Of a stretch of 64,000 bases of DNA, positions 496 to 20,888 are shown piece after piece. The translations under genes and the position numbers were made by a program. The stretch is from Vulcanimicrobiota bacterium (GTDB taxonomy: Bacteria > Vulcanimicrobiota > Vulcanimicrobiia > Vulcanimicrobiales > Vulcanimicrobiaceae), in the NCBI GenBank assembly GCA_963723515.1, contig CAVRQT010000003.1, positions 384,001 through 448,000 on the forward strand. The letters are read 5' to 3'. The number at the start of each line of letters is the position of its first letter. Within the stretch, counting starts at the first letter, position 1. Below the pieces are notes generated by a model. It did no database searches, had not been told where the DNA came from, and saw only the letters and a list, made by a program, of their open reading frames with translations.

Positions 496-1200
496 GTGGA
501 AGTCGATAGATGCACCGTGGAAGATAAATCGCTAGGCGATAGCACGGTTACATTTCTCTTTACCGACATCGAGCATTCGACGCAACGATGGGAGCGTGAT
601 CGAAGTGCGATGATGTATGCGGTGCAACGACACGATGAGCTGATGCGGGGCGCGATCAATGCCAGCGACGGTCACGTTTTTAAGACCGTCGGTGACGCGT
701 TCTGCGCCGTATTCAAGCGCCCTACAAACGCCGTCGTCGCCGCCATCGAGGCTCAGCGGCGAATTTTCAACGAGGACTTTTCAGCCGTTGGGGGCCTGCG
801 CGTGCGGATGGCGCTGCACAGCGGGACGGCCGATGAGCGCGATGGCGACTACTTCGGCCCGGCCCTCAACCGAGTCGCGCGGATCGTTTCGATCATCTAT
901 GGCGGCCAAGTCGTGCTCTCAGAGGTAACCTGCCTTCAGGTGCGCGATGAATTGCCGGGCGATACGACGCTCGTCAACCTGGGTGCGCACCGGCTCAAAG
1001 ATTTGGCTGAGCCCGAGCGTCTGCATCAACTTGTTGACTCCCGATCTGCCGCACGACTTTCCGACACTACGCTCCCTTGAAAAGCTGCCGAACAATCTTC
1101 CGCTGCAACTCACGCACTTCATCGGCCGCGATGCTGAACTAGCCGCGTTAGAAGCACTTTTAGAAGAATCGCGACTTGTGACACTCGCCGGCACCGCTCC
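496..1200 (+). pseudogene. Truncated class III adenylate/guanylate cyclase + STAND (NB-ARC-like) protein
   Basis: Cyclase motifs TFLFTDIE, KTVGDAF, GDYFGPALNRVAR in ORF 496-1080. Continues by frameshift in ORF 947-1279 (PNNLPLQLTHFIGR...LVTLAGT), then similarity to paralog 18078-20888 stops at the Walker A loop. Confidence 0.8.
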
Positions 1201-1497: not shown

Positions 1498-4379
1498 CTA
1501 GGGCCAGCCATTTCTGAAGCAAATTCGGCGCAAGCATCCCGATAGTGCAATGATTGCCCCAAAGAGACCAGCTGGTGTACTTGCTAATCGCCTCCCCACC
1601 ATTAAGCAAAGCGATCGCTCCCAGTCGTGCGGATCAACCGAATAGATTGCTAGCGTTCCGTACTGATGCTGTTCCAGGTATCCCGCTACGAGGTACCGGC
1701 CGTCCGCGCTAAAGCTTAAGCTTCGGAAGTGGTGATAGTTGCCGTTGAAGTGGGGTGGTTGTGGCAGCGGCGGCCCTACTCGATGTGCCCGTTTGAAAAT
1801 CGGCAAGCTGAATACCACCGTTTTCCAAACTCTGGAACGCATAGAGTCGAGAATTTGGCGATAAAGCGATTGGACCGCTCGCGGAAATTTCCAACCCAGG
1901 AACGGGATTCAAAGATGGCAAGGAGTATACGCGGAGTCCGGTTCTTGTGCTCTCAGGTTGTACAAAAAGCGTAACCCTCGTCTTTAGAGAACCCGGTTCC
2001 GTCGAAAAACCTACCGAATGCGCGTACCATCTCGGAACAATGTAAATAAGTAACCGGGCCCAACGGGCGCAGTGTCTTCTGTAGGCAGCCAAAAGCAATC
2101 GCCCACGCGAGCTCAGATAATCGGCTGTATCACAATACGCTGAAAAGCTACGGACCCTTCCGCCGCCTTCTTTAAGCGATTCTATATCGTCTGGCGCGAA
2201 AAGACGGTGCCGCACGATCGTGACCCATGCGTCGATGGGTCCCCATGCCGCCTGACAGATCCTCTACGTAATTGCCATCCTTGTCTAGCGAAACCGGCGG
2301 TAGCTGGAAAGAGTGCACTACCCTGGGGCCTGCGCCGATATCCATTAGTTCGACTCTACCGCTCGTGAAATAGATCCTCACCGCATGCACGCCGTCCCCG
2401 ACGTCCTTCAGTCTTACCGAACCGTTCGCGTACGTATCTCCTTCGAGTTGTGTGCGAAAGCGATTCAGTTGATACGCGCGCAGTCGGTTCCGTCCTTGCT
2501 GGATAAGTGTATCTCCACTGAACGCGTAGCTGTCGCCCCACGGCCCACCGTCAAGCACACCAATCATGGGCGAATGAATCTCCGAAAGAGATCGAAGAGC
2601 TGAGCCCCGTGAATGGCTCGACCGTGGCCGATGGTGACTCATTAGTGACGAATTCTTTTACATGATCATCGTAGACTCGGGCGCAAAGAAAACCCGGACC
2701 TGGTAAGAGTACTCCGGTCCCACAAGGCGTCGCTTTCGTTCATCGAAGAGGCTGGGTTAACCGCCCAGCATCAATCGTTCCTCGCGGCCACGAGTAGTTT
2801 AACAAAGTCACGGCGTGCCCGCAGGAAGCGCCCGGGACAGTCTGGACGATCTTGGTTTCCCAAGCAGCAGTTCGTATTAAACCGTCGTCACACCACGAAA
2901 TTTCATTCTTGGTCGAGTTAAATGCTATTCCCTGAGAACAATCCTTGATACAGTCCGCCTTCTTTATCGGAATATCCCGAAGCTGGCGCAACGAGGGCGT
3001 CGCAAAGATGGTCAGCTCAGCAGCGCCGGTGACCTCGTCCTGTTCAAAGCCCCGAGCAACGGTTAAAATACTGAGGACAGCAACGAATCTTCCGTCTGGA
3101 GAAACCGCTAGTCCGCAGGAAGCCCCCGCACCTGTGCTGCAGCAAGTGCCTTAGCGGAGCCAACGCGATATAACGCTGTAAGTCGCCGACTACTTGATGC
3201 GACAGCAAGTAGAGACGCGCTACTGCACGCTAGAGCCCTTACGTGCGCGCCGCGAAGACTCGACATGACGACAAACCGCGATCGGTGCACGATGCTGTAG
3301 ATTGTAACGCCCGACGAATCCGAGGCTGCGAATAGAGGGTTGCGCGGAAAACCACACAGGTGCGTCGCCAGCCGATGTACGGGCGTCCGCGACATGACAC
3401 TGAGATCGTTGGAGTCCAAAGACAATGAAATCTTTCGGCTGCTTACCGTCGGGCGTGACTGTTTCTATAGCGAGCAGCCGCCCATAATCCGAAAAAGCCG
3501 CCAATTCCCAATCCGGCACGGCGACACTGCGCAGAGCGTCAAGAGTGCTCAATTGCGCAAGCATGGCGCCTTCAGTTTCTGGCGTTTCCGCCGTTTTGTA
3601 TGCCTCTGTAGCGAGGATCGCGCCGACGACGCTTCCTTTCCGCTGCATACTCATTGACGCGGTTGCATTTGCCCGTTGGACAACGAGTCAACGATAGGCC
3701 ACCGTCGTCGGCCACACAACCAACCCAATGAAGACGATAGCGAGGACTGCCCGCAATATGAGGACACGGCGACGGCGAATCCGATCTCGCACCTTGAGCT
3801 CATCGAACCGGATGCCCGCGATCGCTGCGACGATTCGTAATCGTACGTCTCTTGCAGGCTCACCATGCGGTCGCGCATCGATGACGAGTGGTTCAGGAAG
3901 CCTTGATCCAGCGTCGTCGATCAGCAACGCGGCTGGAAGCGAGTCGCCCAGTTCACCGGCGACGAGCACGGCGAAAATGCGATCGCTGCCGTTCTTGTTA
4001 CGGAATTGGCGGATCTCCTGATTGACCCAATTCGAAGCAGCTGCGTCCGGCGAACACAGAACGACGAGTGTGCGCGAATCTTCAAGAGCAGCGCGTAGAG
4101 AAGCGCCAAGGTCGGCGGAACCTGAGAGCTCATCGCGGTCGCGAAAGATCGGAATAGGCGCTTGGGGAGCGGCTCTGCTGGTTCGCCACCCAATTTTGCT
4201 GGCAGTCGAAACGTCTCGATGGCACGAGCGAGTCGTTCCGCGGTTCGTTGCTCGTGGTGACTATAACTGAGGAAAGCCCAGTAGCGGGGAGCGCGTCCTA
4301 CAGAGGTTTGCAAAAAGACACCTGACCGATGTTCCTTGGGCGCGTCGCGGCTGTTAGGCGCTTCCCCGTCCTCTATCAC
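1498..4379 (-). CDS. TIR domain + transmembrane helix + WD40-like beta-propeller protein (multiply frameshifted)
   Basis: Joined frames give YWAFLSYSH...PIFRDRDELSGSADLG...LVVLCSPDAAASNWVNQEI (TIR), then RRRRVLILRAVLAIVFIGLVVW (TM), the linker AILATEAYK...TEGAML, and propeller-like strands (AAFSDYGRLLA, IALSPNSRL, LSFSADGRYLVAG). Confidence 0.75.
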
Positions 4380-4851
4380 AGCTATAAAAATCTTCGGAGC
4401 AATTAAAAGAAAATCTTGCCTAGTCTACTGACGCGCACTCCACGTCGCTCGGAAAAGTCGGTTGCGCTGTACCGCGCCGGCTCGGAAACGCCCGATATCG
4501 TGCTGAAAATGCAGACGCAGCGGCGCGGATCCGTTACTCTATGTCACGGCATGTCACGGCTTCTGTTGCACTTCAAAACCGCCGACCCAGGCTCAGTACA
4601 GGGACACACTGACCTTCACCAGCAGGTGGCGCACTACATGTCGTCACGCCCTTTTGCGAACCTGGCGAGCCAAATCGCTCCCCGTCTGAACACGTTCACA
4701 AGATTTACGTCTTAAACGGAATTTCTCTCAAACAAGTTGGCCACAATTCATCAACTAAGGCCCCACCGCCCAGCGCCGGCCTCGCAATAGCATCCACCGT
4801 AATGCCGAGGAAGCCGCCGCGCACGAGACAGTTCACCCTTTTTCGATACCA

Positions 4852-6262
4852 TTAACTCACCGCAACCGGCTGTGTTGCGGTTTTGAAGTCCTCAATGAAG
4901 CGATCCAGTTCTTGCATGTCGATATCAGCCGGTGTGGCATCCTTTATCTCCATTAAGTTGCTTAGCGTCGTTGCGCTTTCGAACGGCTCAATCTTTAACG
5001 ATTAGCTTTAGCAGGCCAGCCCCCGCGCGTTGCCAGTCGTTCGCGAGTACTGCAAGTTCAATACCTGTTGCGAGTAGCCAGTAATCGGGCGTGTCGCCGA
5101 GGCGAGCAACGGCGAAGGTAACCGCTGGCACGATCTTTTTCTTCATCGCGATGGATTCTGGAGAATTTCGAATCGCGAGTAGCGTGGCGAAATTTACGCC
5201 GGGATAGTAGTCGCGCGGATCCGCCATGAAACCGCGCTGGTACGAAGCGATGGCTTCATCGAGAAACGCCATAGCTTGAAACGGGTTCTTGCCTTTTGTT
5301 TCCTTATAACGGTCTTTCCAAATGCGTCCTAAAAGTCCGCAGGTCTCGGGGTCATCCCCGTGATCTTTTACTATCGCTTCTAGCAGTCGTTGCGCTTTGT
5401 CGCGATCACCGGGTTGATTGCGTCGGTTGAGGACAAGCGCATATTGTTGGCGCAATGTGACCGAGGTGTCCATGAGCCACTGCGGCAGGCGTTCGGCTAA
5501 CAACACAGCCGCGTCCCAAGCTTGCAGATCTCGGTAGCTGAGCAACACATCGACAAATAGTTCGGCGTTGTTTTGCTGCGGAGCCCCCAGTTCAGTTTCA
5601 ATTGCCTTGATGAGCTCGAGGGCATGGTCGCTGTCTTTGCGAGCCGCTTGCAGGCGTATGCGCACACCGTCGACGTAACGGCTTCGGTCACGAAAGTTTT
5701 CCGTAACTTCGTGCGGCAAGTGGATTCCCGGAAACTCTGGAAGAAGCTGGAACAGCGGGCTGTCGCTCGATTCGGGATTCGCCAACGCGTATTCAACTCT
5801 GTCTTGAAGTGTTTGCTGCAATTGTGCAGCGCTCTCGGCGCTTAATTTTCCGTTGTCTAATTGATAGGGGATCGAGCTGATCATGGATATGTCGAAGGGG
5901 AGTATTCCTTGATTCCCCCAGATGATGATCGTGGACCGCGGCCGCGCGGCGTGCCGAATTCCCAGCTCGTAGAAGACGTTCGGGTTTGGGACCGTGACAT
6001 CGACGATCGTAACATCAGCTAGCAGCAAGCGCTCGAACATCGGCACATGAATAATCCCGCCACCGCGCTCCTCGTCCGCGCGGATGCATTCCAGCTTAAG
6101 GCCATCGACAGCCGGCTTAATTCCACGCGTGTAAATATCGTCGAAATCGATTTCCAACGTGCGCGTTGCATCTGGCTTCTTGCCGAAGGGCATCGCCACG
6201 AAGACCAAAGGCGCGCACGGGTTCGGCGCTTGCGGCGAAATGCGTTGCTTATGGGTAGTCAC
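4852..6262 (-). CDS. Nucleoside 2-deoxyribosyltransferase-like (DRHyd/ASK-type) domain + DUF4071/MAP3K TRAF-binding TPR protein
   Basis: FVAMPFG...RADE...ADVTIVDVTVPNPNVFYELGIRHA; LLSYRD...QQYALVLNRRN...ETCGLLGRIWKD...YYPGVNFATL. C-terminus continues after a frameshift near 4990 (FESATTLSNL...AVS*). Start estimated at GTG 6262. Confidence 0.85.
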
Positions 6263-6366
6263 GGGATCGACTCCGTTCAGTTGTACCGCAATGCGGTACG
6301 GTCTTAGTAGCGCTTTATCGGAAGCGGGGGATGTCCTCGTCGTTGGGCTACTAAATATACTTTCGT

Positions 6367-8024
6367 ATGGCCGCACGTGCACCGGTGATGGAAACGGGGC
6401 CGTTCCCGCTTGTGGTCGGCGTGACCGGACACCGCGACCTGCGAGAAGCGGATCTCCCTCCGCTGCGTGAGGCGGTGTGCGCGGTGCTCAATACGTACCG
6501 GACAAATCTACCGCGCACGGCAATTACGATTCTATCGTCGCTCGCTGACGGGGCGGATCGTTTGGTCGCGCGCGTAGCGCTTGAGCGGGGATGCAGCCTT
6601 GCGGCTGCGCTGCCGATGCCGCGCGAGGAATTTAAAACGACGCTTAAAGACGACGCTGCCCGCGCCGAGTTTGATTGGTTGCTCGCCCAATGTACGGCGC
6701 AGTTTGTAGCACCACCGCTGAACCGCGATATTGATTGGCGGCAGCGTCGGTCGATCTTCGCTACGCGAATTGCGCCGCGTACATAGTCATGCGATCCGCC
6801 GAACAAATCGCACTGTGGGACGGAAGGCGCACCGATGGAATCGCCGGCACAGCTGCCAGCGTGCGGTTCATGCTCGAAGGAGTTCCCGAGCCGATTGTCT
6901 CTCGGCGCAGCGACTTAGATCCCGAACCGATTGGCCCAATTATTCAAATCGTTACACCGCGAGAGGCTAATCCTTCGCCCGACGGTGTGCCTTACAGCAT
7001 CAAGCGCCTGTATCCGCCGTTCCTCATTTCGCAAGTTGATAACGAGGATGTCTTTGCGGATCTACTTCACCACCTTGATAACTATAATAACGACGCGATC
7101 GAATGCGCGCACGTGCGCAAGATGCGCCACTTTTCTCTTGAAGAGCTGCAAAACATCACCGAGGTGCTCTCGGGCTACTACCAGGGCTGGACGCAACGCG
7201 TACTGCTCTCGGCGTTGGCATTTTGTCTTGGCAACCGTCTTTTTCGACCTATATGTTACGGGGTTGCTTCAATCGGCATTGGTGTTACTGAGCTATTTCG
7301 GCTTAACGCTTGGCGCCGTTATCGTTTATGCGATTTCTCAACGGCGCGGCTATCAAGATCGCTATCAAGATTATCGTTCACTCGGAGAGGCCTTGCGCGT
7401 GGCCGCTTTTTGGCATCGAGCTGGCGTCGCCGCATCGCCCGCTGACGTGGTTGCGCACCTTCAGCGGGGAGAAGTGAGTTGGCTGCCGACTGCGATTCGG
7501 GCGCTCGTTGAACCATGGCTCCCAAATATTCCGAGGCCTTCAGTGAACGCGGCCGGGTTGCGAGATGTCTACGAGCAATCGGTCGTTGACCAAGCGGCTT
7601 GGTATGCTCGGCGAATCAAGGAAAAGCGACAGTTTAGCGCGCACGCCGCCGTTATAGCCTTCTAGCAGTCGCCGCGGCCGAAGCGATCATTCCGCTGCAG
7701 CTGCTGCCGGGGATGCATGGATGGCGCGAGGGGATATTTCTGGTAAGCGGCGTTTGCGCGATACTCGCCGCACTCATTAGCTACTATGCCGAAAAGCGGG
7801 GGTGGCTCGAGGAAATGAAGGAGTACATGCGGGTCGGCGCGCTGTTCGGTCGTGCACGCGAGCAACTGTCAACGCTCTTGTCTGAGCCTTCCTTAAGCGA
7901 AGCGACACTACTACGGATCCGCCGCATGCTCGAAGAACTCGGCCGCGAAGCTCTGCGCGAAAATATAGCGTGGCGCAATTTGCATCGCCAGCGTCCGATT
8001 AAGTTACCGCATATGCACGTATAA
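6367..8024 (+). CDS. SLOG domain + SLATT/DUF4231-like transmembrane effector protein (copy 1, frameshifted)
   Basis: SLOG motifs VVGVTGHR, SSLADGADRL, AALPMP, ALWDG...GT. TM pairs followed by YQDRYQDYRSLGEALR and LGREALRENIAW. Spread over ORFs 6367, 6735, 6931 and 7713. Confidence 0.75.
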
Positions 8025-8073
8025 TTTGCGGTGGAATGCAGGTGATCGAGTATCTATACTCACGGAATAAAGC

Positions 8074-8684
8074 ATGAATAAGAGAGGGGCTGGGATCGTA
8101 ATGGCGGATAAATCGGACCGCGCGATCGTAAATTCTCGGAACGTAATTCTATTCTCTTTGGCTTGGTTAATCGCTCTGCTCGCGTTCGGCGCGCAAACAT
8201 CGCTTCCGGCGACCGCTAGCGCCATACGCCTCGATGACGTGGTCGATATGACGCTCGCAGGTGGCTTGCGGCTTTCGCGCTGGGGTCTTTGCGCTCGAGG
8301 ACTTTTCGTTGGCGTCGTAGCAGCGAGCGACGAAAATTCATTCCTGGGCGTCATCTATATTAAGCGAAGCGCTGTAAGAATCATAACGGTGCGCGGGCGC
8401 GAACGGAGCAGCGATCGCTCTGATTGCGCGGCGTACCAATCCGTGTCCGACCTCGTCAGGGGCGAAACCTACCGTTGCCGTTGGAAATAGCCGACCGGAA
8501 AGGTAACGTGTATGTGGGCGCGACTCCTTTGCGCCTTAACTCCGGAACTTTTGATGTCGCCGGCGCGTGCCAATACCGCCGCGAACTTGGTGGACCAACG
8601 TGTCGGGAGAAGATTAGCGCTCATCGTCCCGTCATTTTGCGGTCCGAGGACATCATTCTCATTACGGGCTACAGGAGTAAATGA
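8074..8684 (+). CDS. Hypothetical secreted protein (probably frameshifted)
   Basis: Signal-peptide-like VILFSLAWLIALLAFGA in ORF 8074-8490 and an overlapping downstream ORF 8424-8684. No recognised domain. Confidence 0.35.
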
Positions 8685-8774
8685 AATCCGTTATTGATAT
8701 GTGGCTTTGTATTTATGCCGAGGCACTGTTAAAGCAGCGCAAGGCTTGTGCAGCGTAGGCGGAACGCATCGCAT

Positions 8775-9331
8775 CTATTGGTTTCGTTTTAGGCTGGCTC
8801 TTTTCAACCAAAGGTAAAGCGACGACGCGATCATCACGAGTCCCGTGAGGAGCCCGTACCCGGTCAGGCCGAGCAATAGCGTCGCAGGCATCGGTAGATC
8901 GCCAGTCCAGAGGCGTACGAGTAACGTCACCATGCCCGCAAGTACGGAAACGCTGCCAACCGTCGTGATTGCCGCGGAGCCGTCAGTGTTCGCACACCGT
9001 CCAGCGATCATTTCAAGCAGCCCTTTGCATATGAACCACCACATTAATGCAACTAAGTAACTGCCTGGCAGCCAGCATCAGCGCGGCAGACGTCAGGGTG
9101 GACAAAACCGAGTAGCAGCAACACATTTCTCGCGCGACCTCGTGACACGTACGCGGTCCAAGCTGAAAAGGCAAATTCCGTAAGTGCATACGCACAGCAC
9201 AGCAGCGGAAGAACAAAAATGAGGCCAACGAGCGCTGGCAAGATTGCGGCCGAAAACGCCAGCGCGAAGATGCTGCGAGGTAGAAGGAATGCCTGCCAAG
9301 TGCTGAACCATTTAGGCTGCAGAAGGCCCAA
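8775..9331 (-). CDS. Hypothetical multi-pass membrane protein (frameshifted)
   Basis: Hydrophobic ORFs 9053-9331 and 8775-9044 in series, just downstream of the TIR-MCE gene. Confidence 0.4.
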
Positions 9332-9360
9332 GAGGCTAACTGGCCTGTTGCTTTATTTGC

Positions 9361-10194
9361 TTACAGTCCCGTGCGGCTCTGCGCAAAGTACGGCAATGTG
9401 ATGTGGCAGCTGGCGGCTGATGAACTTCCGTAGAGAGGTTGTCCGATGTGAACTATCGGGGAGTTAAGCACACCATCGTGTGCAATTGTAAATCGTGCGT
9501 CTTCGGGAATGTCGATGTCAGGCTTAAGCTGCATGATCACCTCCACTCATCGTTTAACTTGTCTCGGCATGACGTATGCCGGCTCTGTGGGAGCAGAATA
9601 ACGTTACCAACTTGGCCCACCTCTACGCCATTGTATTGAACTGGCGTATCTGCGCTGACGCTTCCCGCATCTGGAAACGAGACGCCGATCGCGTACATGC
9701 CTACTCTTGCGTTGAAATCAATGAGCGAGCGAAACGCAAAGAACAAAGCGACGAGAACCAGCGGCGTGGCCCACAATGCAATGCGCCGCGTCATCCTGCG
9801 TCGCCGCGCCAGACGTTGGACGGTATCGCGAACCTCGGCGGCCACGTTCCCCTGCGGCATAAGCACTGAAAAAGGGCGTAACGAGCTAGGAAGCTCGTCA
9901 AACGGCACAGGTTGTAACATCACCGGAATAATGCGCCCTTGAGGCTTGCGCCATCGCTCTTCGGCAAAACGGAGTTCGGTTCGGGAAGCTCCCTCGTTGC
10001 ACTGACTCGGGGGTGACTAAGAAGATCATCATGTCGCTCTTATAGAGCGATTCTCTGATCCACTTGTTGAAATCGTCGCCCGCTATAATGTTGTCTTTGG
10101 CGAAGAGCACGTCATTCCCGGCGGACTTGAGCGTTGCTGCAATCGTTTCGGCATCTCGCTGATGTGCGTTCGGATAGGACAGGAAGATTCGCAT
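9361..10194 (-). CDS. TIR domain + TM helix + MCE/MlaD domain fusion (two frameshifts)
   Basis: MRIFLSY...IIAGDDF...IFLVTPESV...TELRFAEERW...RIIPVML (TIR); RRIALWATPLVLVALFFAF (TM); YAIGVSFPDAGSVSADTPVQYNGVEVGQVGNV...VEVIMQL...IPEDARFTI..DGVL (MCE pattern). Confidence 0.75.
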
Positions 10195-10242
10195 CGTACC
10201 TCAATCCGCAGATTCTGGCCGCAAGGGTTTTGGAGGACTTAC

Positions 10243-10505
10243 ATGAGCAATCGCCGCGTCGCTTTCGTCGCGGTCGTCATCGGCTTCCTTGCTCTTTCAA
10301 TGTTCAATTTGCTGGTCACGCGCGCGGTCGTTTCGGCCCGACAACCCTTATGCAAACTCTCCTGGTTCTATCTTGGGTGCTAGTTTCCGCGACGAACCTC
10401 GAGCAGGTTAAAGCTAACGTTTTGGCGCGTGGGATACTCGCGGAAGCGGTGCTGGTTATTGTCGCACTGCTATATTGCTGCTGCTGGCCCTTCGAAGAAA
10501 TGTAA
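10243..10505 (+). CDS. Small membrane protein (frameshifted)
   Basis: GGAGG RBS before ATG 10243; hydrophobic segments VAFVAVVIGFLAL and ILAEAVLVIVALL. Confidence 0.45.
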
Positions 10506-10599
10506 GGGACAGAAGTGAGATGGTGTGCCAGTTCAGCGTCGCTTTGCGTGTCAGCAGGCAAATTTCTGCAGACGGCGTCGCCAAAAAATGTCGCCTTTC

Positions 10600-12245
10600 T
10601 TAGTGCGGAACACTCAGGGGAGAATTCTCGTTGGCCGAGGAGCCAGTCCGCATGTTCGACTAACGCTTCACGGGCAAGGTTCCGAATGATGTCCGTCTCC
10701 GCTTGGCTGCGCGCCGTTACGCCATCGAGCAGGCGCGCGTATTGTGCGAACAGCAGGTACATGCGCTCGTAACGTTTGGCGTTTTTCGCAAATCCTCTCT
10801 TGGCGGCGTAGTTGGAAAGGAAGAGCGCAATTAGGCCGCCGATGGCGAGCGGTGCGGTGGCGTTGGGATCTTGCAACGAAGTCCCCGCGTGCGCCAAATG
10901 CCAACGCTGCATGTCAGCTGAAATCACGGTTGGCCATAGCCAGCCGGTCCGGGCTTCCACGTCGTGCGCATGCTGCGGCAAGATGGTGCCCAGCGTCCCC
11001 GCTAAAGCAACCAGCGCACCGACAGCGGCGCCCGCGACGTTGAGAAAACGGGCGTGCCCTGCTTGCGTTTTTGTTGCATTTTGGTAGTAGTCTCGTTGGC
11101 CAGTCACCCACTCTCGGGCTTCTCTGGAACAATCCGCTGTAGACTGAGGAGTACTTTGAGGTGCGGTTACCTCGATGCTTCGCAATGCCCTCCGGATCCA
11201 TTGCAGTTCGCTTTTCTGCATCGAGAGATAAGCTGTCTGAGCGAAATCAGACGGCAGCCCGGCGCACGCTGTTGCATACGTTGTGCGTAAGGCTTCGCTT
11301 AACGCGCGGTAATCTTGATAGCGGTTCTCGTAGTCGAACCGCCGTGCGAACGCAAATGCACCGTAGGCGAGGACGAGCGTCGCGATTTTCACGTCGTTGA
11401 CAAATGGAATATTGCTTAAGAATTGTGCCGCCGCGGCAAAGAATGCGCAAATATATACCAGCAAGACCAAAGCCAACGTGCGAGACTGGAGTTGTCCAGC
11501 GGCACGGCCCAACCGCTCTTGCATCGATCCGCTTTGCCGGGCGATGTCGAGATTGCATTTTCGCAAGTGGCGTAGCGCGCTGTTAAAGTCTCGCGCGGCG
11601 GTTTTGTCGCCTTCGAATCGCGGCGGGAATAGGCGCCTGATCGTAAAAGCGTCAGGCAGCGATTGCCCCGTTTCGGATGGCGTAAGGATTTCAAACGTCG
11701 GCGCGATATCGGGCTGTGACGGGCGGCGAGGTCGGCATCAACGCCGGTGGCCTCGCCCGTTTTTCGCATCGTAACGACGTCTCGCCGGCGCCGCCGTCCA
11801 ACGTGGCGCCGTCCCAAAAGATTGCGGCGATATGGCTAAAAGTAGCTAAGCACAGTGCGACCGCGTTGTCGCTCTGCGAAGGGTTTTCGGAGGTTCCGAC
11901 CACGATTGTTGTGCTACTTTGCTGCAACGCGGCACGAAAACGTGCCAGATGATCGGGCGAGAAGCGTTGTTCGTAGTCTGCTTGGGGCGCGGGCAAGAGT
12001 GCGATGACAGGAACGCGGGCCGCAAAGGCGCGCTCCGCGGCAATGATTTCCGCGCCCGGGCAAAGTGCACTCATGACGGCAAGCGGCAGACCTTTGTGCG
12101 CGAAAACGAGCTGATCTAAAAGAACGCCGAACGCGCTTGAAAGCTTCGGTTCGTCGGAGGGCGCGATCTGGGTGTATCCGGTTAGCCCGATGAGCAGTGG
12201 TATGCCCGGCGCGCTCCGCGCTTCGCTTGTTTCAAGCTGACCCAT
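10600..12245 (-). CDS. SLOG domain + SLATT/DUF4231-like transmembrane protein (copy 2, frameshifted)
   Basis: LIGLTGYT, SALCPGAEII, ALLPAP, IFWDG...GGAG; then YENRYQDYRALSEALR and LAREALVEHADW. Colinear with 6367-8024. Stop reconstructed at 10600 (...SPLSVPH*). Confidence 0.75.
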
Positions 12246-12629
12246 ATGGGCCCGTTCTAGCGGGTCGCCGCAACGCCTCGACAAATGACGTTTCTGCCCA
12301 GGCCCCGCCAGCGGTCTGACCTAATGTGTCGCAGCTCTGCGGCATTGAATATAGGTATTGTTTCGCCTTTGCGAACCAGACGACGACGTCTCAAATTCAA
12401 GCGGTGCACGACCTCTTCTCGCGCTGGCATTATGTCCACAATGCGCGCGACGGTGGCGGACGGTCACAAGCGGGAACAATTCTCGCTAACACGCCATCGA
12501 CTGTTTTCGTTGTACTGCATCGTTTCGTACCGCGCAATGATCGGGTGCACGCAGAGGGTTGAGCCCTGTGGAATCCGAACAACCTAGGATGAAACTCGCA
12601 GTGCGTTCGCACCGCGGGCCATTTGGCTT

Positions 12630-14141
12630 ATGGAGCCGGTAAGAGTGCCACGGTTATTCCTTTCGTATGCCCGAAAAGATGATGCACCCTTTGAAGAGCG
12701 GCGCGGCAGTGGGTTCGTTACTGTGTTGCTTAAGCATCTCGAAGAGGCACTTGACGATCTTGGGCCGCCGATTCCGGAAATCTTCCGCGATATGCGCGAG
12801 ATCGATGAGCCAGCCAGTTTGACCCGGTGCTACGTGAGGAATTAGCCCGAGCCGACTATTTGCTGGTTGTGCTCTCAAACAACTGGTTGCATCGACCATG
12901 GTGCCGGGACGAGTTAGAGTTGTTTGCATCCAGATGGCATCAGGGCGACCGTGCGCTCAAGGAACGCATCATCGTGATCGGCCGGCGCTTCATCGATCCT
13001 GAAAAGCGACCCGCGCTTCTCCAGGGACAAAGCGGATATCTTTTTTGCGCCTTCGACCGCACGACGAACGACTATGTGGAGTTCTACAAGCGCGGAGAGG
13101 TTTGTGATAAGCGATATCACGACGAAATAGAAGCTTGCCAAAAAACTTCAAAAGCTCGCGCAGACTGAGGCGCCGCTAGAGAGCGGCGCTCGCACCAAAC
13201 CAACGCGCAAAGTTTTCGTTTCAAAGCCAGCGGGCGATATGGAAGCTGCCTATGCCCGCGTTGTAAACGAGCTCGAAGCGCAGGTTTGTCTCGGAGGTGA
13301 TTCCGCCGCGTGATGCCGAGATTCCAAAGCAGCGAGCGGAAGCGTGGATTGACAGCGCGTTGGCCAAAGCGGAAATTGCAATTCATTTAATCGGAGAGAA
13401 ACCGGGATGGACGCCGGAGAGCGGGACCCCCATTGTCTGCACTTCTTCAACTTGCCCGCTCAGCGACACATGCGCAAAAATCCGATCTCCGCCGCATCAT
13501 ATGGGCGCCGAAGAAAGTCACCGCGGACGGCAACGCAGACACGCATGGTGATTTGCGCGAGCCGGTCTCGGTGGTGTCGCGCTTTTGTGAGAAATTGGAC
13601 ACTGACACCATCGATGGCAGCGAGCTTGCCAAGTTTCTTGAGTTCGTTACGCTGTATCTTCGGGAGCACCGCCCCGCCCCGGAATCCGGTACCGATGTGG
13701 CGCTCGCTGCGAACTCACGAGTGTACCTGCGTTACTGGGATGAAGACACCGATTATGCGCTGGAACTCAAACGAGCGCTCGAGCAGCGTCAAATTGCTAC
13801 CGAGATGTCGGTACTCGACGGCAACCAACCGGCTTGAGCTTGAAGAGTTTAACCGCCGTTTGCTCGATCAATCGGATGCGGCGCTTGTTTGTTGGGCGAA
13901 TGTCGACGAGCTGCGCGTACGCAGCCAAATGATGCAATGGCGCGACACCCGCAAGGTACGTGCCTTGGTTGCCGGTCCGCCCGACCGTAACCCAAAGAAA
14001 GTGCTCGTCGCGAGCCCTCCAAAGAACGACGTCGACGTTGTGCTCGATTTGCGCAATAGCGCTAAGGTCACGCCGGACGCACTTGACCCGCTGATCAAGA
14101 AAACGCGAACGCCGCACAACGCCTCCGCAACCAAACCATGA
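12630..14141 (+). CDS. Multi-domain TIR protein (TIR plus two further TIR/DUF4062-like alpha/beta domains; frameshifted)
   Basis: RLFLSYARKDD...IFRDMREI...LLVVLSNNWLHRPWCRDEL; second module KVFVSKPAGDM...IAIHLIGE; third module RVYLRYWDED...SDAALVCW. Stop overlaps next ATG (ATGA 14138-14141). Confidence 0.7.
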
Positions 14142-16413
14142 CCGTGGCGTTCAGCCCGCAGCTTTCAGCGGAGCGTCCGTTTCCGGGGCTGCGCGCCTTC
14201 ACATTTGAGGACCGCGAATTCTTTTTCGGACGGGAACAACAGATCTTCGCGCTTTATCGGTTATTAGACTTAAGCCGTTTTATCGCTGTCGTCGGCGGGT
14301 CTGGCAGCGGCAAATCATCACTGGTGCGCGCGGGCCTTGAGCCATTAGTGGAACAAGAGAGTGAGGCCGATGGCGGAAGGCCATGGATGCTTGCGACCAT
14401 GCATCCGGGAGAAGCGCCCATTTCGTCGTTGAGTGATGCCTTGGCATCACTACATGGAAAAATAGCAGGCGCTGCCGACACGGCGGACCACGCGATCCGT
14501 CGCAGTCGGATCGAGCATGCGCTTCGGCGCTCCAGCAGGGGCTTATTGCAACTGATTCGCGATACCGCTGCTTTCGAGAAAAGCGCTTACTGCTCGTGGT
14601 CGATCAGTTTGAGGAGCTCTTCCGCTATGCGTCACCTGGATTGAGAGCCAAGAATTCGATTTCTGAGTTCTCATGGCGCGACGAAGCGACCCAGTTCGTG
14701 CATCTCTTGCTCGAGGCGTCCGCGGACCGGGAGACATGGGGCTACCGTGCTCATCACCATGCGTTCCGATTTTATTGGAGACTGCGCACTCTATTATCGG
14801 CTCCCTGAAGCCGTCAGCGAAGCTCAGTTCCTCGTCCCATCGTTGACCCGCGGCCAGCGCGAAGACGTCATTCGCCAACCCATTGCCAAGGCCGGCGCTG
14901 AGATTGAACCAAGTTTAGTCCAAACATTGCTAAACGAGGCAGGTACCGAGATCGATCAGCTTCCCGTTCTGCAGCATTGCCTTGCGCGTCTGTGGGATCG
15001 AGCGAAATCTCGTGCCACCGAGCAGCGTCCGGCGCTGAACATTTCCGATTATGAAACCGTGGGACGCCTCCAAGACGCCCTTTCGCAACATGCAAACGAG
15101 ATTATGGCGTCACTGCCGGGCCTCGAGCAGGTCGTCGAGTCAGTGTTCCGCGCGCTGAGTGAGGTCGACAAAGAGGGGCGCGCCACGCGTAGAGCCATCC
15201 CGTTTGAGCAGTTGCTCGCGGAAACAGGCGCGTCTCGCGCGGATTTGATTCGAGTGCTCGATCGCTTTCGTGCTGACGATTGTTCATTTATCGTCCCGTC
15301 AACCTCAGCCGTACCCGTGCTGCATGATGCGACGCAAATCGATGTGGGACACGAAGCATTGCTACGCCGGTGGGACCGCATGACCGGTGATGACACGGCA
15401 AGGGGATGGCTTTCGGCCGAAGATGATGATGCCGGCTGGTACCGCATGTTGCTGCGATTTGCTAAAGGCGCTTAATGGGCGAGCCGAATCGTGTAACGTT
15501 GCCCGCTCAGCAAGTAGAAGCATGGTGGGCGCGTTGGAATGCACGCCCGCGTACCAGCGCTTGGGCGGATCGCTATGGCGGCGGTTTCGAGCGCGTCCAA
15601 GAACTGTTGAAAAACAGCCGGCAAGCGGTCGAAGAGCAACGCAGACGCGCACGTACCGCTCGAGCGCGGCGTATGCTAGTTGTCGTAGCAGCGATGTTCG
15701 TCGTGATTGTGCTTGCGCTCGGCTCCTGGCGTGTTCTTTACGTAGCGGACCAGACGCACAAGGAAGCAGTCGACGTGGCGGACACTGAGAATAACGCTCA
15801 GGTTTCCATGCAGTTCAGCGGGGTTCTGCGCTCGGTCGTACGCATTCGTGCAGGTTCCCAAGTTGGGACGGGAGTCGTGGTCGGACAACGAGCTTCCTCG
15901 TCATACATTTTAACCGCCGCTCACGTGATTGGTGCTGAGAGAAGTGTGCGAGTGTTTTTGCACGCTTTGTATGGTCAGGGCGACGGGATTGCAGCGCGCG
16001 TTATAAAGGCGAGCCCCCAAACCGATTTGGCCGTGCTTTCCATCCGGCGGACGAACGTGCCGGCGATTGCGCTTGGCCGGGTGAGCGAAGGGCTGCTGGT
16101 CTACGTGGTAGGTTTTCCGCAGTCTGAACGCGCCTTTGAGATGACAGGTATGCACCGTTCAACGACTACAACGCTTGGTGTGGTTGAGATCAATCACACC
16201 ACGGGGCGACTTAACGTTGAGGAGGCCTACAGCGGGCAGGCGCCGTTTCTGTACGGGGGCAATAGCGAAGGCCTCATCCTGGACCGTTATACATTGGGCC
16301 TTGTTGGAATCATCCATCGCGCGGTCAGTCGCGCGGGTAACGGCTACTCCTTTGCTCCCGTACCCATCAACACCATAACGCAATTCTTGCTACCGATTTT
16401 ACGCTCGTCTTAG
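14138..16413 (+). CDS. nSTAND1 P-loop NTPase + TM + C-terminal trypsin-like serine protease (frameshifted)
   Basis: PFPGLRAF...FFGRE, Walker A GGSGSGKSS, Walker B VDQFEELF, ITMRSDF, LPVLQHCL, HEALLRRW; TM MLVVVAAMFVVIVLALG; trypsin motifs GTGVVV, LTAAHV, DLAVL, GNSEG. Confidence 0.8.
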
Positions 16414-16510
16414 TGAGGCGTATGTGGCGCATCCGTTATCTGCTCATTCCAAAAATGACACGCTGCCACCGCGGCACCGCCGGGCAATCTGCCAACGAGA
16501 GGCGATATTA

Positions 16511-17563
16511 ATGCGGCTCTGGCTTTTTGTTATAGCAGCATTCGCATGTTTATGTTGTCTGACGGTCCTGTCTGCACGAACGTCAAGCGAATCGCCGCTA
16601 CTGCGACTCACCGATGCTAACGTTGTTGCATCCGGAGATGGCACGACGTGGTTCTCGGCGGTAATCGGGAACAATCCGGGCGCCGTAGTCGTCGGTGAAC
16701 TCGGACCGGCGGGGCCCGTGAACGTATTCGCGTTGTCTTCCGCTGATCAAGGAGTGCCAACAGCCGGGAACGTCGACGCGCACGGCGTTTTCTGGTTTCA
16801 GGGCAACGGAGGCAGATACATAGGCGAAATTTCTTCAGCGGGCATTCTCAAAAAGTATGTGCTGTCGCAGGTTAGCGTTGGCGACGTTAACGCAGCGCCA
16901 AACGGGAGCGTCTGGTTCACGGATCAACAAGCCGGTGGGGTTGGACTCTTGGACGCACGTGGTGCGTCATTTCGATGGATCCTCAAGGGCACTCGGGTCC
17001 ACAAAACTGCGGTCGCAGCCGATAGTTCGTTGTGGTTCACCGGGGTTGACACGGATACGGTTAACCATCTGCTGTCCAGTGGAAACAATACGCAATACAA
17101 GGTGAGAGCTGAAGGCGATCGGCCCTTTGAACCATCGGAAATAGCAGTTGCAAAAGATGGTGCGGTATGGTTTAGCGCACAAGAATTCTTGAATAAAGTT
17201 GGGACGATCACACCTTCCGGGTCGCTGCGAACTTTCTGGATACGGCCCTCTGACTTTGGAGCGTTCGCGCTTGCGCCGTACGACGGCTCGGGAGTGTGGT
17301 TTGCACAGAGCCGTCCTAGCCGCGTCGGGACAATTGACGCCGCAGGGCACGCTCAGGCACTGGATGTACCGATCAAAGGCCGTGAGGTAGAACCCACGAG
17401 CATCGCGACTGACCGCCTCGGCGACGTGTGGTTGTGCGACTCGAGTTCGAAGGGCGTCGGCTTTTGGCGACTGGACACTCGGCGACACTTCACGGAATTC
17501 ACCAGCGTGCCGTCGGCCAAGCAACCGCAGATCATCACCATAGTGGTAAGGGAAGTGCGTTGA
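16511..17563 (+). CDS. Secreted Vgb (virginiamycin B lyase)-like beta-propeller protein
   Basis: Signal peptide MRLWLFVIAAFACL; repeated xxDGxVWFx blades (NGSVWFTD, DSSLWFTG, DGAVWFSA, GSGVWFAQ). Confidence 0.75.
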   Translation: MRLWLFVIAAFACLCCLTVLSARTSSESPLLRLTDANVVASGDGTTWFSAVIGNNPGAVVVGELGPAGPVNVFALSSADQGVPTAGNVDAHGVFWFQGNGGRYIGEISSAGILKKYVLSQVSVGDVNAAPNGSVWFTDQQAGGVGLLDARGASFRWILKGTRVHKTAVAADSSLWFTGVDTDTVNHLLSSGNNTQYKVRAEGDRPFEPSEIAVAKDGAVWFSAQEFLNKVGTITPSGSLRTFWIRPSDFGAFALAPYDGSGVWFAQSRPSRVGTIDAAGHAQALDVPIKGREVEPTSIATDRLGDVWLCDSSSKGVGFWRLDTRRHFTEFTSVPSAKQPQIITIVVREVR

Positions 17564-17915: not shown

Positions 17916-17991
17916 TCCGGATTAGCTCAGTTGGTAGAGCAGCTGACTGTTAATCAGCGGGTCGTTGGTTCGAGTCCAACATCCGGAGCCA
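17916..17991 (+). tRNA. tRNA-Asn (GTT)
   Basis: 76 nt; acceptor stem TCCGGAT/ATCCGGA, D-arm AGCTCAGTTGGTAGAGC, anticodon arm GCTGA-CTGTTAA-TCAGC, T-loop GTTCGAGTC, encoded CCA. Confidence 0.97.
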
Positions 17992-18077: not shown

Positions 18078-20888
18078 GTGGGCGATTTTACAGTTCGGCG
18101 CGAAGGCAGGCCAGTGGAAACTCCGCTGCGGACGCGGCGTCCCTCGAAGCGTCGCGCGTCGAAACTGCCAAGCGGGACGATCACTTTTCTCTTCAGCGAC
18201 ATCGAAGGCAGCACGCACCTTTGGGAAGACGACCATGCCGTTATGCAAAGCGCCGTACGCCGCCACGACGTCGTCATGAGGTCGGCGATCACGGCGAACG
18301 AGGGGTGCGTTTTCAAGACCGTCGGCGATGCGTTCTGTGCCGCCTTCGCCCTGCCGGGTGATGCCGTTGCCGCAGCGCTCGAAGCGCAACGCGCGCTTGC
18401 GCTCGAAGGGTCCGGCGATCAGATCCGTGTTCGCATGGCCCTCCACACGGGAACTGCAGACGAACGAGACGGAGACTACTTCGGCCCAACTCTGAATCGC
18501 GTCGCCCGATTGCTCGCAATCGGTCATGGCGGGCAGGTGCTCATCTCAGCAGTGACAAGCGAACTCATGCAAGATAAGATGCCACCGAAGGTAACGCTCG
18601 AGGACCTGGGCGCGCATCGCTTGCGAGATCTCGCAAGACCCGAACACGTCTACGAACTGCGCGCTCCTGATTTGCCGAATGGTTTTCCTCCGCTTCGTTC
18701 CCTCGATGCGCTACCCAACAATCTGCCGTTGCAACTTACGTCGTTCGTGGCACGAGAAAAAGAAGTGGACGAAATCACCGCGCTGCTAAGCAAACACCGG
18801 CTGGTAACGTTGGTCGGCGCCGGCGGAATCGGCAAGACGCGTATCTCCTTGCGAGTCGCAGCCAATATGCTCGACACAAGCGCCGACGGGGTGTGGTTTG
18901 TCGAGCTCGCACCGCTCACCGATCCCACGCTGGTGCCGAGCACGATCGCAAAGGCACTCCACGTCACCTTGCCGGCTGAGGGCGATGTGCTCGAGGCGTT
19001 GGCGCGCTCGCTGAAGGTCAAGCGCTTGCTTATCGTCCTTGATAACTGCGAGCATTTGCTAGGTGCTGCCGCGGCTGCGGCCTCAATGATCCTGCGGAAC
19101 TGCCCTAAAGTAACAATCTTGGCCTCAAGCCGCCAAGGACTGGCAATCACCGGGGAAGCCGTGTATCGCATGCCGTCGTTGGCGATGCCGAACGTCAAGG
19201 AATCTGCCACGCTTCGCGCGCACGAGGCGACGACCTATGGCGCGATCGCGCTTTTCGTTGCTCGCGCCGAAGCCGCCGATGCGCGCTTTAGGTTCACGGA
19301 TGAAAACGCACCAATTGTTGCGGATATTTGCCGTCGTCTCGATGGTATCGCCTTCGCAATCGAACTGGCAGCAGCGAGGGTGGGAGTTCTTAATCCGCAT
19401 GAGCTGCGAGCGCGCCTTGACCAACGTTTTCGTGTACTGACAGGGGGCGCGCGCGACGCGTTACCGCGACGGCAAACGCTTCGTGCACTCATCGATTGGA
19501 GTTATGATCTGCTCGACGAGCGCGAGCGCGCGCTCTTTCGCCGAATCGGTATCTTTGTGGACGGCTTTACCCTTATCGGTGGGCTGGCAGTTTCCGGTGG
19601 GGAAGTCGATGAGCTTGAACTCTTCGACGTACTCGCCTCGCTGGTGGACAAGTCGCTTGTCATAGCTGAAGGGGCGCACGATTCAACGCGCTATCGACTG
19701 CTCGAGTCGACGCGCGCGTACGCTTGCGAAAAACTCGATGAATCTGGCGAGCGCGCTACTATGGCAGAAAGGCACTTTGCCTACGTGCATGCTCTTTTTT
19801 CAGGAGCGGCGGCGTCCTTTGAAGGGAGCCCACGCGAAGACACCGTGTTTGCCTTGGCAACCGAGCTTGAGGACCTGCGCGTCGCGCTCGACTGGGCCGC
19901 AACGCAAGACCCTTCCCGAGGCGCGGACCTGCTTACGAAGACCCGACTGTTCCCCTACCTTGGACTCTATCGCGAGGGCATCGAACGTGCAGAGCGGTTT
20001 GCAACGCTGCTCGAAGGAAACAATGCAAATCTGCTTGCGCGGCTTTGGACGTATGCCTCGTTTTGTGCACAACGACACGTCAATAGGAAACGCGCGTTTG
20101 CCGCGGCAGAGTCCGCGCTCTCATACGCTCGCTCATCTGGCAATGCTACCGTACTTGCCGACGCGTTAGTCATGTACGGAAGCACCGCCGCCTCGTGGGG
20201 GCGCTTTTCGGAGGCTGAAGCGGCGTTCATTAAGGCCGAGGCGGTAGAAGCGCCTACGTTACGTCGGGAGCTCGACCTTCTAAGGTTCCGCGCACTGCTC
20301 ACCTATTTCCTGAGCAGTGATCCCCCTGCTGCGCGGCAAGCATTCGAGCACCTCCGCTCGTTGCACAAGTCACTTGGGAACATGCGCGGCGAATCAGCCG
20401 CTACGATCAGCCTAGCTGAGTTGGAGCACGCGCGCGGGGAAACCAGGCGCGCAATAGCCTTGGCGTCGGAAGCGCTATCCATGGCGCAGCGTCTTCAAGA
20501 CACCGCGTCCCAAGTGCATGTCAATATGAACTTGACGGCCTACCTTCTTGCCGTCGATGATCATGCGGCTGCGCGGATCGCGGGACACAGCGCGCTTCAG
20601 CTTTTTGCAAAGAGCGACCCGTACCACACCCACGTGGTCCTAACATTGGAACACCTTGCTCTGGCTTGTGCCCTCAAGGGCGATTTCGAGCGCGCGGCGC
20701 GGTTGGAAGGCTACGCCGACAATGCTTTGCGAGCGATTGGCGCCGAGCGCGAACGCACTGAGACCATAACGCACGAGCGTCTCGCGGTGCTGCTCAAGGA
20801 GCATTTTAGCGCAGTCGAACTGCGCGCGCTTCTCGCGGCGGGCGCCGCCCTGATGCCAGGTGAAGCCATCGCCGAAGGGCTCGCCTAG
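18078..20888 (+). CDS. Class III adenylate/guanylate cyclase + STAND ATPase + TPR protein
   Basis: FSDIEGST, KTVGDAF, GPTLNRVAR; Walker A GAGGIGKT; LLIVLDNCEHL; LDGIAFAIELAAAR; C-terminal helical repeats. Intact 936 aa ORF. Confidence 0.92.
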   Translation: MGDFTVRREGRPVETPLRTRRPSKRRASKLPSGTITFLFSDIEGSTHLWEDDHAVMQSAVRRHDVVMRSAITANEGCVFKTVGDAFCAAFALPGDAVAAALEAQRALALEGSGDQIRVRMALHTGTADERDGDYFGPTLNRVARLLAIGHGGQVLISAVTSELMQDKMPPKVTLEDLGAHRLRDLARPEHVYELRAPDLPNGFPPLRSLDALPNNLPLQLTSFVAREKEVDEITALLSKHRLVTLVGAGGIGKTRISLRVAANMLDTSADGVWFVELAPLTDPTLVPSTIAKALHVTLPAEGDVLEALARSLKVKRLLIVLDNCEHLLGAAAAAASMILRNCPKVTILASSRQGLAITGEAVYRMPSLAMPNVKESATLRAHEATTYGAIALFVARAEAADARFRFTDENAPIVADICRRLDGIAFAIELAAARVGVLNPHELRARLDQRFRVLTGGARDALPRRQTLRALIDWSYDLLDERERALFRRIGIFVDGFTLIGGLAVSGGEVDELELFDVLASLVDKSLVIAEGAHDSTRYRLLESTRAYACEKLDESGERATMAERHFAYVHALFSGAAASFEGSPREDTVFALATELEDLRVALDWAATQDPSRGADLLTKTRLFPYLGLYREGIERAERFATLLEGNNANLLARLWTYASFCAQRHVNRKRAFAAAESALSYARSSGNATVLADALVMYGSTAASWGRFSEAEAAFIKAEAVEAPTLRRELDLLRFRALLTYFLSSDPPAARQAFEHLRSLHKSLGNMRGESAATISLAELEHARGETRRAIALASEALSMAQRLQDTASQVHVNMNLTAYLLAVDDHAAARIAGHSALQLFAKSDPYHTHVVLTLEHLALACALKGDFERAARLEGYADNALRAIGAERERTETITHERLAVLLKEHFSAVELRALLAAGAALMPGEAIAEGLA

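Follow-up and report, generated by a model that had tools for sequence, protein, structure and literature searches.

The window, a 64,000-nucleotide stretch from a Vulcanimicrobiota bacterium (assembly GCA_963723515.1, contig CAVRQT010000003.1, positions 384,001 to 448,000), carries on its minus strand, at positions 9361-10194, what is by its sequence a single gene coding for a membrane protein with one pass and about 278 residues. Its predicted product comprises a TIR domain, a basic patch, one helix, an MCE domain of the MlaD/LetB type and a short tail, and its reading is interrupted twice by breaks of frame in the assembly. The best overall explanation, to which we assign a probability of roughly 55%, is that this is one intact gene for a receptor-like TIR-transmembrane-MCE (TIR-TM-MCE) protein, and that the breaks are assembly errors. 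What appears to be new here is the use of an MCE domain as an ectodomain variant of a large, receptor-like TIR family. A TIR domain joined by one membrane helix to a periplasmic MCE domain has so far been seen in no other gene, and the combination seems to be unique.

Results

One gene read through three frames

The locus consists of three overlapping open reading frames (ORFs) of 98, 128 and 61 codons, and its three-frame translation yields the pieces of one reading. The open stretches of these frames, A, B and C, cover 100, 159 and 61 codons respectively (Table 1). Frame A begins at an ATG at 10194, with GAGG four bases before it, and reads MRIFLSY...FLVTPESVQRGSF. It matches Pfam TIR_2 (PF13676) over profile positions 1-78 of 122, with an E-value of 4.2e-13 and 50.3 bits, above the curated cut-off of 28. 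Frame B is open from 10016 to 9540 and supplies the TIR remainder, which includes RTELRFAEERWRKPQGRIIPVML and then LMPQGNVAAEV; with the profile of the family described below, this region falls on the TIR domains of TIR-STING and TLR6. The Glu of the TEL motif in frame B is, we presume, the counterpart of the catalytic Glu of NADase TIR domains. As a TIR_2 protein, the product thus passes the profile cut-off and carries the conserved Glu, and in the assembly it lacks a single uninterrupted frame, the first break falling near profile position 78. Frame B continues from the TIR half into the MCE half without a stop codon. The fusion is therefore independent of how the breaks are repaired, and the locus holds one gene, not two.

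The MCE half of frame B, MYAIGVSFPDAGSVSADTPVQYNGVEVGQVGNVILLPQ, matches Pfam MlaD (PF02470) over positions 3-43 of 81 (E 5e-8 to 7.5e-8, 33.0-33.5 bits, cut-off 25.1), and the helix stands directly before it as an N-terminal membrane anchor, as in MCE proteins. A further match of frame B is to LetB/YebT (E 3.8e-13), where the helix and first MCE domain fall on chain residues 18-87; the match to MlaD itself is weak (E 0.03-0.04). Frame C (9546-9364, the same frame as A) opens with VEVIMQLKPDIDIPEDARFTI and ends at a stop codon at 9361-9363. By itself it has no Pfam match, and a PDB search with it returned nothing relevant. The genome's own 572-residue MCE protein links the two halves: in BLASTP, frame B aligns with its residues 55-127 (E 5e-9) and frame C with residues 128-148 (E 2e-5), directly contiguous, at 33-48% identity over the matched stretches. 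A profile of our own was made from the N-termini of eight MCE proteins, taken from this genome and from seven relatives. Frame B reaches 39.4 bits on it (positions 13-71) and frame C 14.6 bits (positions 74-107), against 2.4 for the best of 200 shuffles of frame C. Joined with an X at the break, frames B and C give 56.2 bits on this profile as a single domain.

An earlier note on this DNA had read TIR, RRRR, a transmembrane helix and MCE in one gene with two frame breaks, and the Pfam, BLASTP and profile results bear this out; both of the MCE motif strings it quoted are present in the sequence. It had also held that a C-terminal part unrelated to PF02470 would speak against the fusion. Instead, frame B lies above the MlaD cut-off, and the second half of the domain is recovered by BLASTP and by our own profile.

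The protein resembles MlaD, PqiB and LetB/YebT in having N-terminal basic residues, one anchor and an MCE beta-barrel domain predicted to face the periplasm. It differs from them in the TIR domain on the cytoplasmic side, in having a single MCE domain followed by a 26-residue tail, and in lacking a helical extension; the long C-terminal region of the genome's own 572-residue MCE protein has no counterpart in it. Compared with related MCE proteins, about 13 extra residues occur in one loop. Unlike in Mla systems, no MlaE or MlaF gene lies near. The genome's only MlaE is encoded at C3:677138, 284 kb away and beside the gene for the 572-residue MCE protein, and the permease and ATPase of Mla systems are missing here, as the earlier note had correctly stated. 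No partner of the PqiA/LetA type was noted nearby either, though no search aimed at one was made.

A receptor-like TIR family with a variable outside domain

An exhaustive HMMER search of 1.84 billion representative sequences with frame B as the query gave 1129 matches at E<=1e-3, the best 150 of which are the window's own fragment and 149 other proteins. These 149 best relatives align to the C-terminal half of the TIR domain, the basic patch and the helix. Domains were assigned in them at E<=1e-3 for 59 proteins and at E<=1e-5 for 90. TIR_2 was found in 143 of the 149, and 136 have at least one predicted helix, the median start of the first one being residue 140 (interquartile range 137-145). 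In the 102 single-helix members the part beyond the helix has a median length of 165 residues. The C-terminal domains are diverse: FGE-sulfatase (C-lectin type) in five proteins, Amidase_2 in two, PAN in two, CarboxypepD_reg in two (below cut-off), Big_6 (below cut-off), and further CHU_C/FlgD_ig, CBM_20, PG_binding_1, CHAT with LysM, and legume-lectin domains. The majority have no recognisable domain in this position.

A scan of one genome per species, run with an alignment (A2) smaller than the family alignment A1, added 32 members from many phyla, all of them uninterrupted ORFs of 207-632 residues, with TPR repeats in five. MlaD was found in none of the 149 database relatives and in none of these 32 genomic relatives. 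Around 27 family genes, 53 neighbouring ORFs (mostly the nearest on each side) include no recurrent family, and the TIR-TM family therefore looks self-contained. The family TIR profile matches TIR-STING (E 8e-8), Caenorhabditis elegans TIR-1, TLR6/1/2/10 and SARM1. We did not find the family described in the literature under the names searched.

The query shares with this unnamed family a TIR subtype marked by PVM..P..P.YL..L.P.G..AEV, the basic patch and the helix near residue 140. In alignment A1 it is 26-38% identical to the other members and keeps the Glu of TEL. All the features of a receptor-like member are present, namely an N-terminal TIR domain with the conserved stretch, the basic patch, and a helix near residue 140 followed by the outside domain at the C-terminus. 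It differs from the other members in that the outside domain is MCE, in that nine of 40 conserved columns deviate, and in that it is interrupted in the assembly. Since TIR domain, basic patch and helix are constant across the family and the outside domain varies, the MCE domain sits in the variable 'sensor' slot. The earlier note had pictured an MCE ring wired to a TIR enzyme. The fusion itself is real; it is not a special wiring of the Mla machine, and the MCE domain occupies the variable slot of the TIR-TM family. Like Toll-like receptors and SARM1/TIR-STING, the protein matches the TIR profile, and with Toll-like receptors it also shares the layout of an outside domain, one helix and an inside TIR domain. 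Unlike in Toll-like receptors, the order is reversed, with the TIR domain N-terminal and the outside domain C-terminal, and the ectodomain contains no leucine-rich repeat or immunoglobulin domain.

The two frame breaks

At break 1 the reading moves on by one base, from frame A to frame B. It lies three codons ahead of the conserved Glu, and consequently the 98-residue product of frame A lacks this residue. Break 2, where the reading drops back by one base from B to C, is confined to 9546-9540 by the stop codons of frame C at 9549-9547 and of frame B at 9539-9537. Between LLPQ and VEV, next to break 2, is a segment of 38 bases that occurs a single time in the genome, no second occurrence having been found there. 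It may represent a real long loop together with the loss of one base, or else inserted DNA of a length not divisible by three. As explanations of the breaks, programmed frameshifting and transcriptional slippage were rejected: on inspection, no slippery heptamer, stop-codon pause or long homopolymer is present at either of them, and the neighbouring genes bear the same kind of breaks.

Small indels without nonsense mutations across five genes

Frame switches were counted gene by gene against an intact orthologue. Five conflict-system genes within 6403-15630 (9.2 kb) together contain at least 14 small frame switches. Four stop codons lie inside BLAST matches, all of them in wrong-frame stretches, and the homologous frames contain zero. 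Outside this stretch, 141 ORFs of at least 600 residues are present in the genome, 23 of them at least 1000 residues long, and the median long-ORF cover is 87%. The other examined regions that are poor in long ORFs are an rRNA operon and a tRNA cluster, and they are therefore uninformative about clusters of errors. The island in which these genes lie occurs in the assembly once, with neither a further copy nor an alternative haplotype found.

A thin long-read consensus characteristically shows runs of small indels, without nonsense mutations or loss of gene bodies. From the mutation spectra of bacteria, so many indels would be expected alongside several nonsense mutations and larger deletions. 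As the changes here are small indels only, with no nonsense mutation and with gene bodies kept, errors are favoured over natural decay, and both interruptions are probably indels introduced by the consensus in this part of the assembly, the organism's own gene being intact. Public reads were sought for 9200-10400, and none was listed. The stretch is unreliable as assembled, and its sequence needs confirming before anything builds on it.

As a separate observation on the rRNA operon, its 23S rRNA gene contains a group I intron (Rfam RF00028, 67.5 bits) at L068:7721-7993 (G000:C3, about 735.7-736.0 kb).

Genomic surroundings

The first part of the window, up to the tRNA-Asn gene at 17916-17991, is a variable island. 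From 1 to 17.9 kb it has no match to the genome of the same genus, which is 77% complete; the tRNA gene bounds an island of about 28 kb (C3:374-402 kb), whose G+C content is 55-58% against 59-60% for the contigs. The housekeeping genes metK and ahcY end about 10.6 kb before the window. A scan of 8600-12500 for promoters and terminators gave counts no higher than in shuffled sequence, and PADLOC and NCBIfam returned generic TIR and MCE matches only, with no system model.

Directly upstream of the TIR-TM-MCE gene, on the same strand and 121 bases away, is a SLOG-SLATT gene, whose two halves are the ORFs 11691-12284 and 10316-11566; its counterpart is a single ORF of 530-590 residues in 11 of 11 relatives' loci. 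A second copy lies at 6403-8012 (+), and all SLATT matches in the window region score under the curated cut-offs. Of the 301 genomes sampled in the phylum, 90 have homologues of the SLOG-SLATT gene; this tally takes in the unpublished genome G263. In three of the 11 relatives' loci a TIR_2 gene directly follows the SLOG-SLATT gene, resembling type VII Thoeris with an added SLOG domain. Two of the relatives (L062, L063) have the order SLOG-SLATT, TIR protein of about 505 residues, and STAND NTPase of more than 1400 residues. The window holds homologues of the latter two, a soluble TIR protein at 12651-14126 (+) and the first ~484 residues of the STAND protein at 14174-15630 (+). Of the 1447 residues of the STAND protein only about 484 thus remain, after which the reading continues into a trypsin-like ORF (15475-16413); the SLOG-SLATT gene has the opposite orientation to that in the relatives' arrangement.

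TIR and SLATT proteins together form an experimentally shown defence pair, type VII Thoeris, in which the TIR protein ThsB and the SLATT protein ThsH act through a cyclic ADP-ribose (cADPR) signal (bioRxiv 10.64898/2025.12.03.692087). The locus resembles this system in having a TIR gene beside a SLATT-type gene on the same strand. It differs in that the TIR protein here is membrane-anchored with an outside domain, that the SLATT gene has a SLOG domain, and that SLOG-SLATT pairs with another, soluble TIR protein in relatives.

Three further features of the surroundings were noted. Directly downstream of the TIR-TM-MCE gene, two ORFs of 92 and 89 residues (8775-9331, minus strand), each with two hydrophobic stretches and without a family match, could be pieces of another broken membrane protein gene. 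At 3921-6382 (-), a protein of 464 residues with MAP3K_TRAF_bd and TPR-S domains is encoded upstream of a small TIR ORF (TIR_2 match 3952-4158); the same preprint discusses such a TPR domain for the type VIII Thoeris effector (bioRxiv 10.64898/2025.12.03.692087). Two genes have adenylate/guanylate cyclase domains, one at 496-1080 (+) and the other at 18078-20888 (+), just past the tRNA gene; the latter is intact and encodes 936 residues, with the cyclase domain fused to a STAND NTPase and TPR.

Table 1. Coordinates in the window of the parts of the TIR-TM-MCE gene, its frame breaks and the interrupted genes around it.
Feature	Position	Strand	Evidence
TIR-TM-MCE gene	9361-10194	-	2 frame switches
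Frame A: start codon and N-terminal two thirds of TIR (MRIFLSY ... ESVQRGSF)	9985..10194	-	Pfam TIR_2 1-78/122; family alignment up to ..RGSF
Break 1, reading +1 base (frame A to B)	9981..9987	-	A fits the family to TTC 9987-9985, B from CGA 9983-9981, one base between
Frame B: TIR remainder and conserved pre-membrane stretch (RTELRFAEERW, GRIIPVML, LMPQGNVAAEV)	9807..9983	-	HMMER matches to 149 TIR proteins; family alignments
Glu codon of TEL, three codons past break 1	9975..9977	-	column is Glu in 114/114 aligned family members
Basic patch RRRRMTRR, predicted cytoplasmic side of helix	9783..9806	-	sequence; family median 4 basic residues before helix
Single transmembrane helix IALWATPLVLVALFFAF	9732..9782	-	Kyte-Doolittle window 1.96; aligns with anchors of LetB/YebT and of the genome's own 572-residue MCE protein
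First MCE half, frame B	9585..9731	-	Pfam MlaD 3-43/81; own MCE profile 13-71, 39.4 bits; LetB E 3.8e-13
38-base segment, against two codons in related MCE proteins; 17-base palindrome 9565-9581	9547..9584	-	profile positions 72-73 fall here
Break 2, reading -1 base (frame B to C, C = frame of A)	9540..9546	-	position forced by stops
Second MCE half, frame C (VEVIMQLKPDIDIPEDARFTIAHDGVLNSPIVHIG)	9442..9546	-	BLASTP to own MCE protein residues 128-148, E 2e-5; own MCE profile 74-107
C-terminal tail, 26 residues and stop, no helical extension	9361..9441	-	sequence; similarity to 572-residue MCE protein stops here
SLOG-SLATT gene, upstream neighbour, split in frames -3 and -1	10316..12284	-	one ORF in 11/11 relatives' loci; 1 frame switch
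SLOG-SLATT, plus-strand copy	6403-8012	+	at least 3 frame switches
Soluble TIR homologue	12651-14126	+	5 frame switches
STAND NTPase	14174-15630	+	3 frame switches

Discussion

The explanation we prefer, an intact gene misread in the assembly, has to be weighed against natural decay, in which both frameshifts are real and the gene is a dead member of a decaying conflict island beside tRNA-Asn. We consider this unlikely, though several observations speak for it: from 6.4 to 15.6 kb no multi-domain gene is whole and the remaining genome is clean, the same stretch contains a truncated STAND gene and an inverted SLOG-SLATT gene, the island is missing from the 77%-complete genome of the same genus, and the TIR domain deviates at conserved columns. 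Against decay stands the character of the lesions, all of them small indels, with at least 14 frame switches and no stop in the homologous frames, where nonsense mutations and larger deletions would be expected too. The broken segments also retain 33-57% identity to orthologues from other genera, and the three frames remain open for 100, 159 and 61 codons in a gene whose 32 genomic relatives are all uninterrupted. A different kind of accident, in which rearrangement of a scrambled island joined the 5' end of an MCE gene to a TIR-TM gene in a fusion that was never functional, is improbable in our judgement. It would account for an MCE similarity that begins at the very N-terminus of MCE proteins (MTRR.. 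against MSKQ../MTRQ..) and ends right after the domain, and for the gene being a singleton, and rearrangements are evident nearby; yet the MCE part is no recent copy, sharing no more than 43% identity with the MCE proteins found, and 33-48% with that of the genome itself over the matched stretches, and the junction lies at a helix common to both parent families, in the same orientation and with a sensible topology.

The remaining alternatives concern how the gene is expressed and with what it acts. That TIR and MCE are separate genes, or that the frames are joined by programmed ribosomal frameshifting, is very improbable. A Met codon (M75 of frame B) does fall exactly at the start position of MCE proteins, and the two breaks are of opposite sign; set against separate genes is the lack of any stop in frame B between the TIR half and the MCE half. 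Improbable too is the possibility that the protein is the TIR partner of the adjacent SLOG-SLATT protein in the manner of type VII Thoeris, the membrane TIR protein making an NAD-derived signal, the SLOG domain binding it and the SLATT domain opening a pore. Only 121 bases separate the gene from its SLOG-SLATT neighbour upstream on the same strand, a TIR_2 gene follows SLOG-SLATT in three of the 11 relatives' loci, and defence by TIR and SLATT through cADPR has been shown (bioRxiv 10.64898/2025.12.03.692087). However, the TIR protein that follows SLOG-SLATT in relatives is a different one, soluble and of 503-857 residues, with a STAND NTPase following or fused to it, and its homologue in the window is the one at 12651-14126 (+). 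Moreover, none of the 27 loci of the TIR-TM family has a SLATT neighbour (E<=1e-6), and the SLATT matches here are below the curated cut-offs.

Several observations weigh against the reading of the locus as an intact receptor-like gene. The query keeps 31 of the 40 well-conserved family columns (family minimum 29, 5th percentile 33, median 37), which makes it a low outlier; an invariant Phe is replaced by Leu in it, and a 96%-conserved Asp by Ala. No second TIR-MCE protein was found among the HMMER matches in the 1.84 billion representatives, where a match to both halves would rank at the top. The two called fragments are singletons in a cluster look-up of 15 billion proteins, a metagenome contig scan with frame B found no relative, and the 77%-complete genome of the same genus has no TIR-MCE gene. 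Sixty relatives have only MCE proteins of 500-600 residues, up to 43% identical, and no TIR-MCE protein; these tallies take in the unpublished genomes G020, G048, G029, G030 and G059, with no sequence of theirs used. The breaks are confined to about 9 kb between apparently whole genes (4988-6382 and 15475-17563), which fits the decay of one module too, and the same stretch has real rearrangements in the shortened STAND gene and the inverted SLOG-SLATT gene. As to function, the NADase activity of the protein is putative. The formation of a ring is likewise not assured: MCE proteins form hexameric rings (bioRxiv 10.1101/064360), and a study of Mce1A and Mce4A reports their isolated MCE domains to be mainly monomeric (PMC8420772), while the present protein lacks the C-terminal helical region. 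Its identity of only 33-48% to the host's 572-residue MCE protein over the matched stretches also counts against ring formation. The roles that the earlier note proposed for the MCE domain, namely driving TIR assembly, sensing lipid disturbance of the envelope or co-assembling with the host ring, would be candidate roles.

Other searches turned up no second TIR-MCE protein either. A word-indexed protein search with frame B at the longer setting gave nothing, and one with the MCE part gave only the window's own fragment at the near setting and one PqiB-like protein (E 9e-3) at the longer setting. ESM Atlas yielded no usable match, a single-sequence PDB search with the family member P0025 returned nothing, and a literature search did not find the TIR-MCE combination.

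With these points weighed, we still prefer the intact TIR-TM-MCE gene, and the family to which it belongs suggests how its product might act. From the established topology of MCE proteins and the positive-inside rule, the TIR domain would be cytoplasmic and the MCE domain periplasmic, as in MlaD and LetB, and the pattern of the family suggests that the outside domain would serve as the input and the TIR domain as the output. Self-association of the MCE domain into a ring, or its binding of a lipid or other hydrophobic ligand, could change how densely the TIR domains are packed under the membrane, and such packing might in turn elicit NAD+ cleavage or an NAD-derived signal. A part in defence or programmed growth arrest is suggested by the conflict genes around it (SLOG-SLATT, TIR, STAND NTPase). 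The mechanism in this specified form, with TIR inside, MCE outside, the state of the MCE domain setting TIR packing, TIR packing setting NAD+ chemistry, and a role in defence, is put forward tentatively.

Two bolder proposals follow in the same direction, and we regard them, taken jointly, as unlikely to hold in full. One is that the gene is intact in the living organism and that the periplasmic MCE domain is a sensing and clustering device of a TIR enzyme, through which envelope lipid, a hydrophobic ligand or damage would trigger NAD signalling or suicide. The other is that the TIR-TM-MCE protein may belong to a large and as yet undescribed class of bacterial TIR receptors that cross the membrane once and exchange their ectodomains, as mirror images of Toll-like receptors.

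To our knowledge, MCE domains have so far been known only from lipid-transport machines and rings. If the gene is intact, they would also be ectodomains of signalling proteins. If the proposed mechanism is true, it would provide a testable model of a bacterial TIR protein that is switched from outside, with the helix linking a ring-forming domain outside to an enzyme dependent on oligomerisation inside. More generally, the family, with hundreds of members that swap lectin-type, peptidoglycan-binding, carbohydrate-binding and now MCE domains, forms a candidate class of envelope-facing receptors for immunity or stress.

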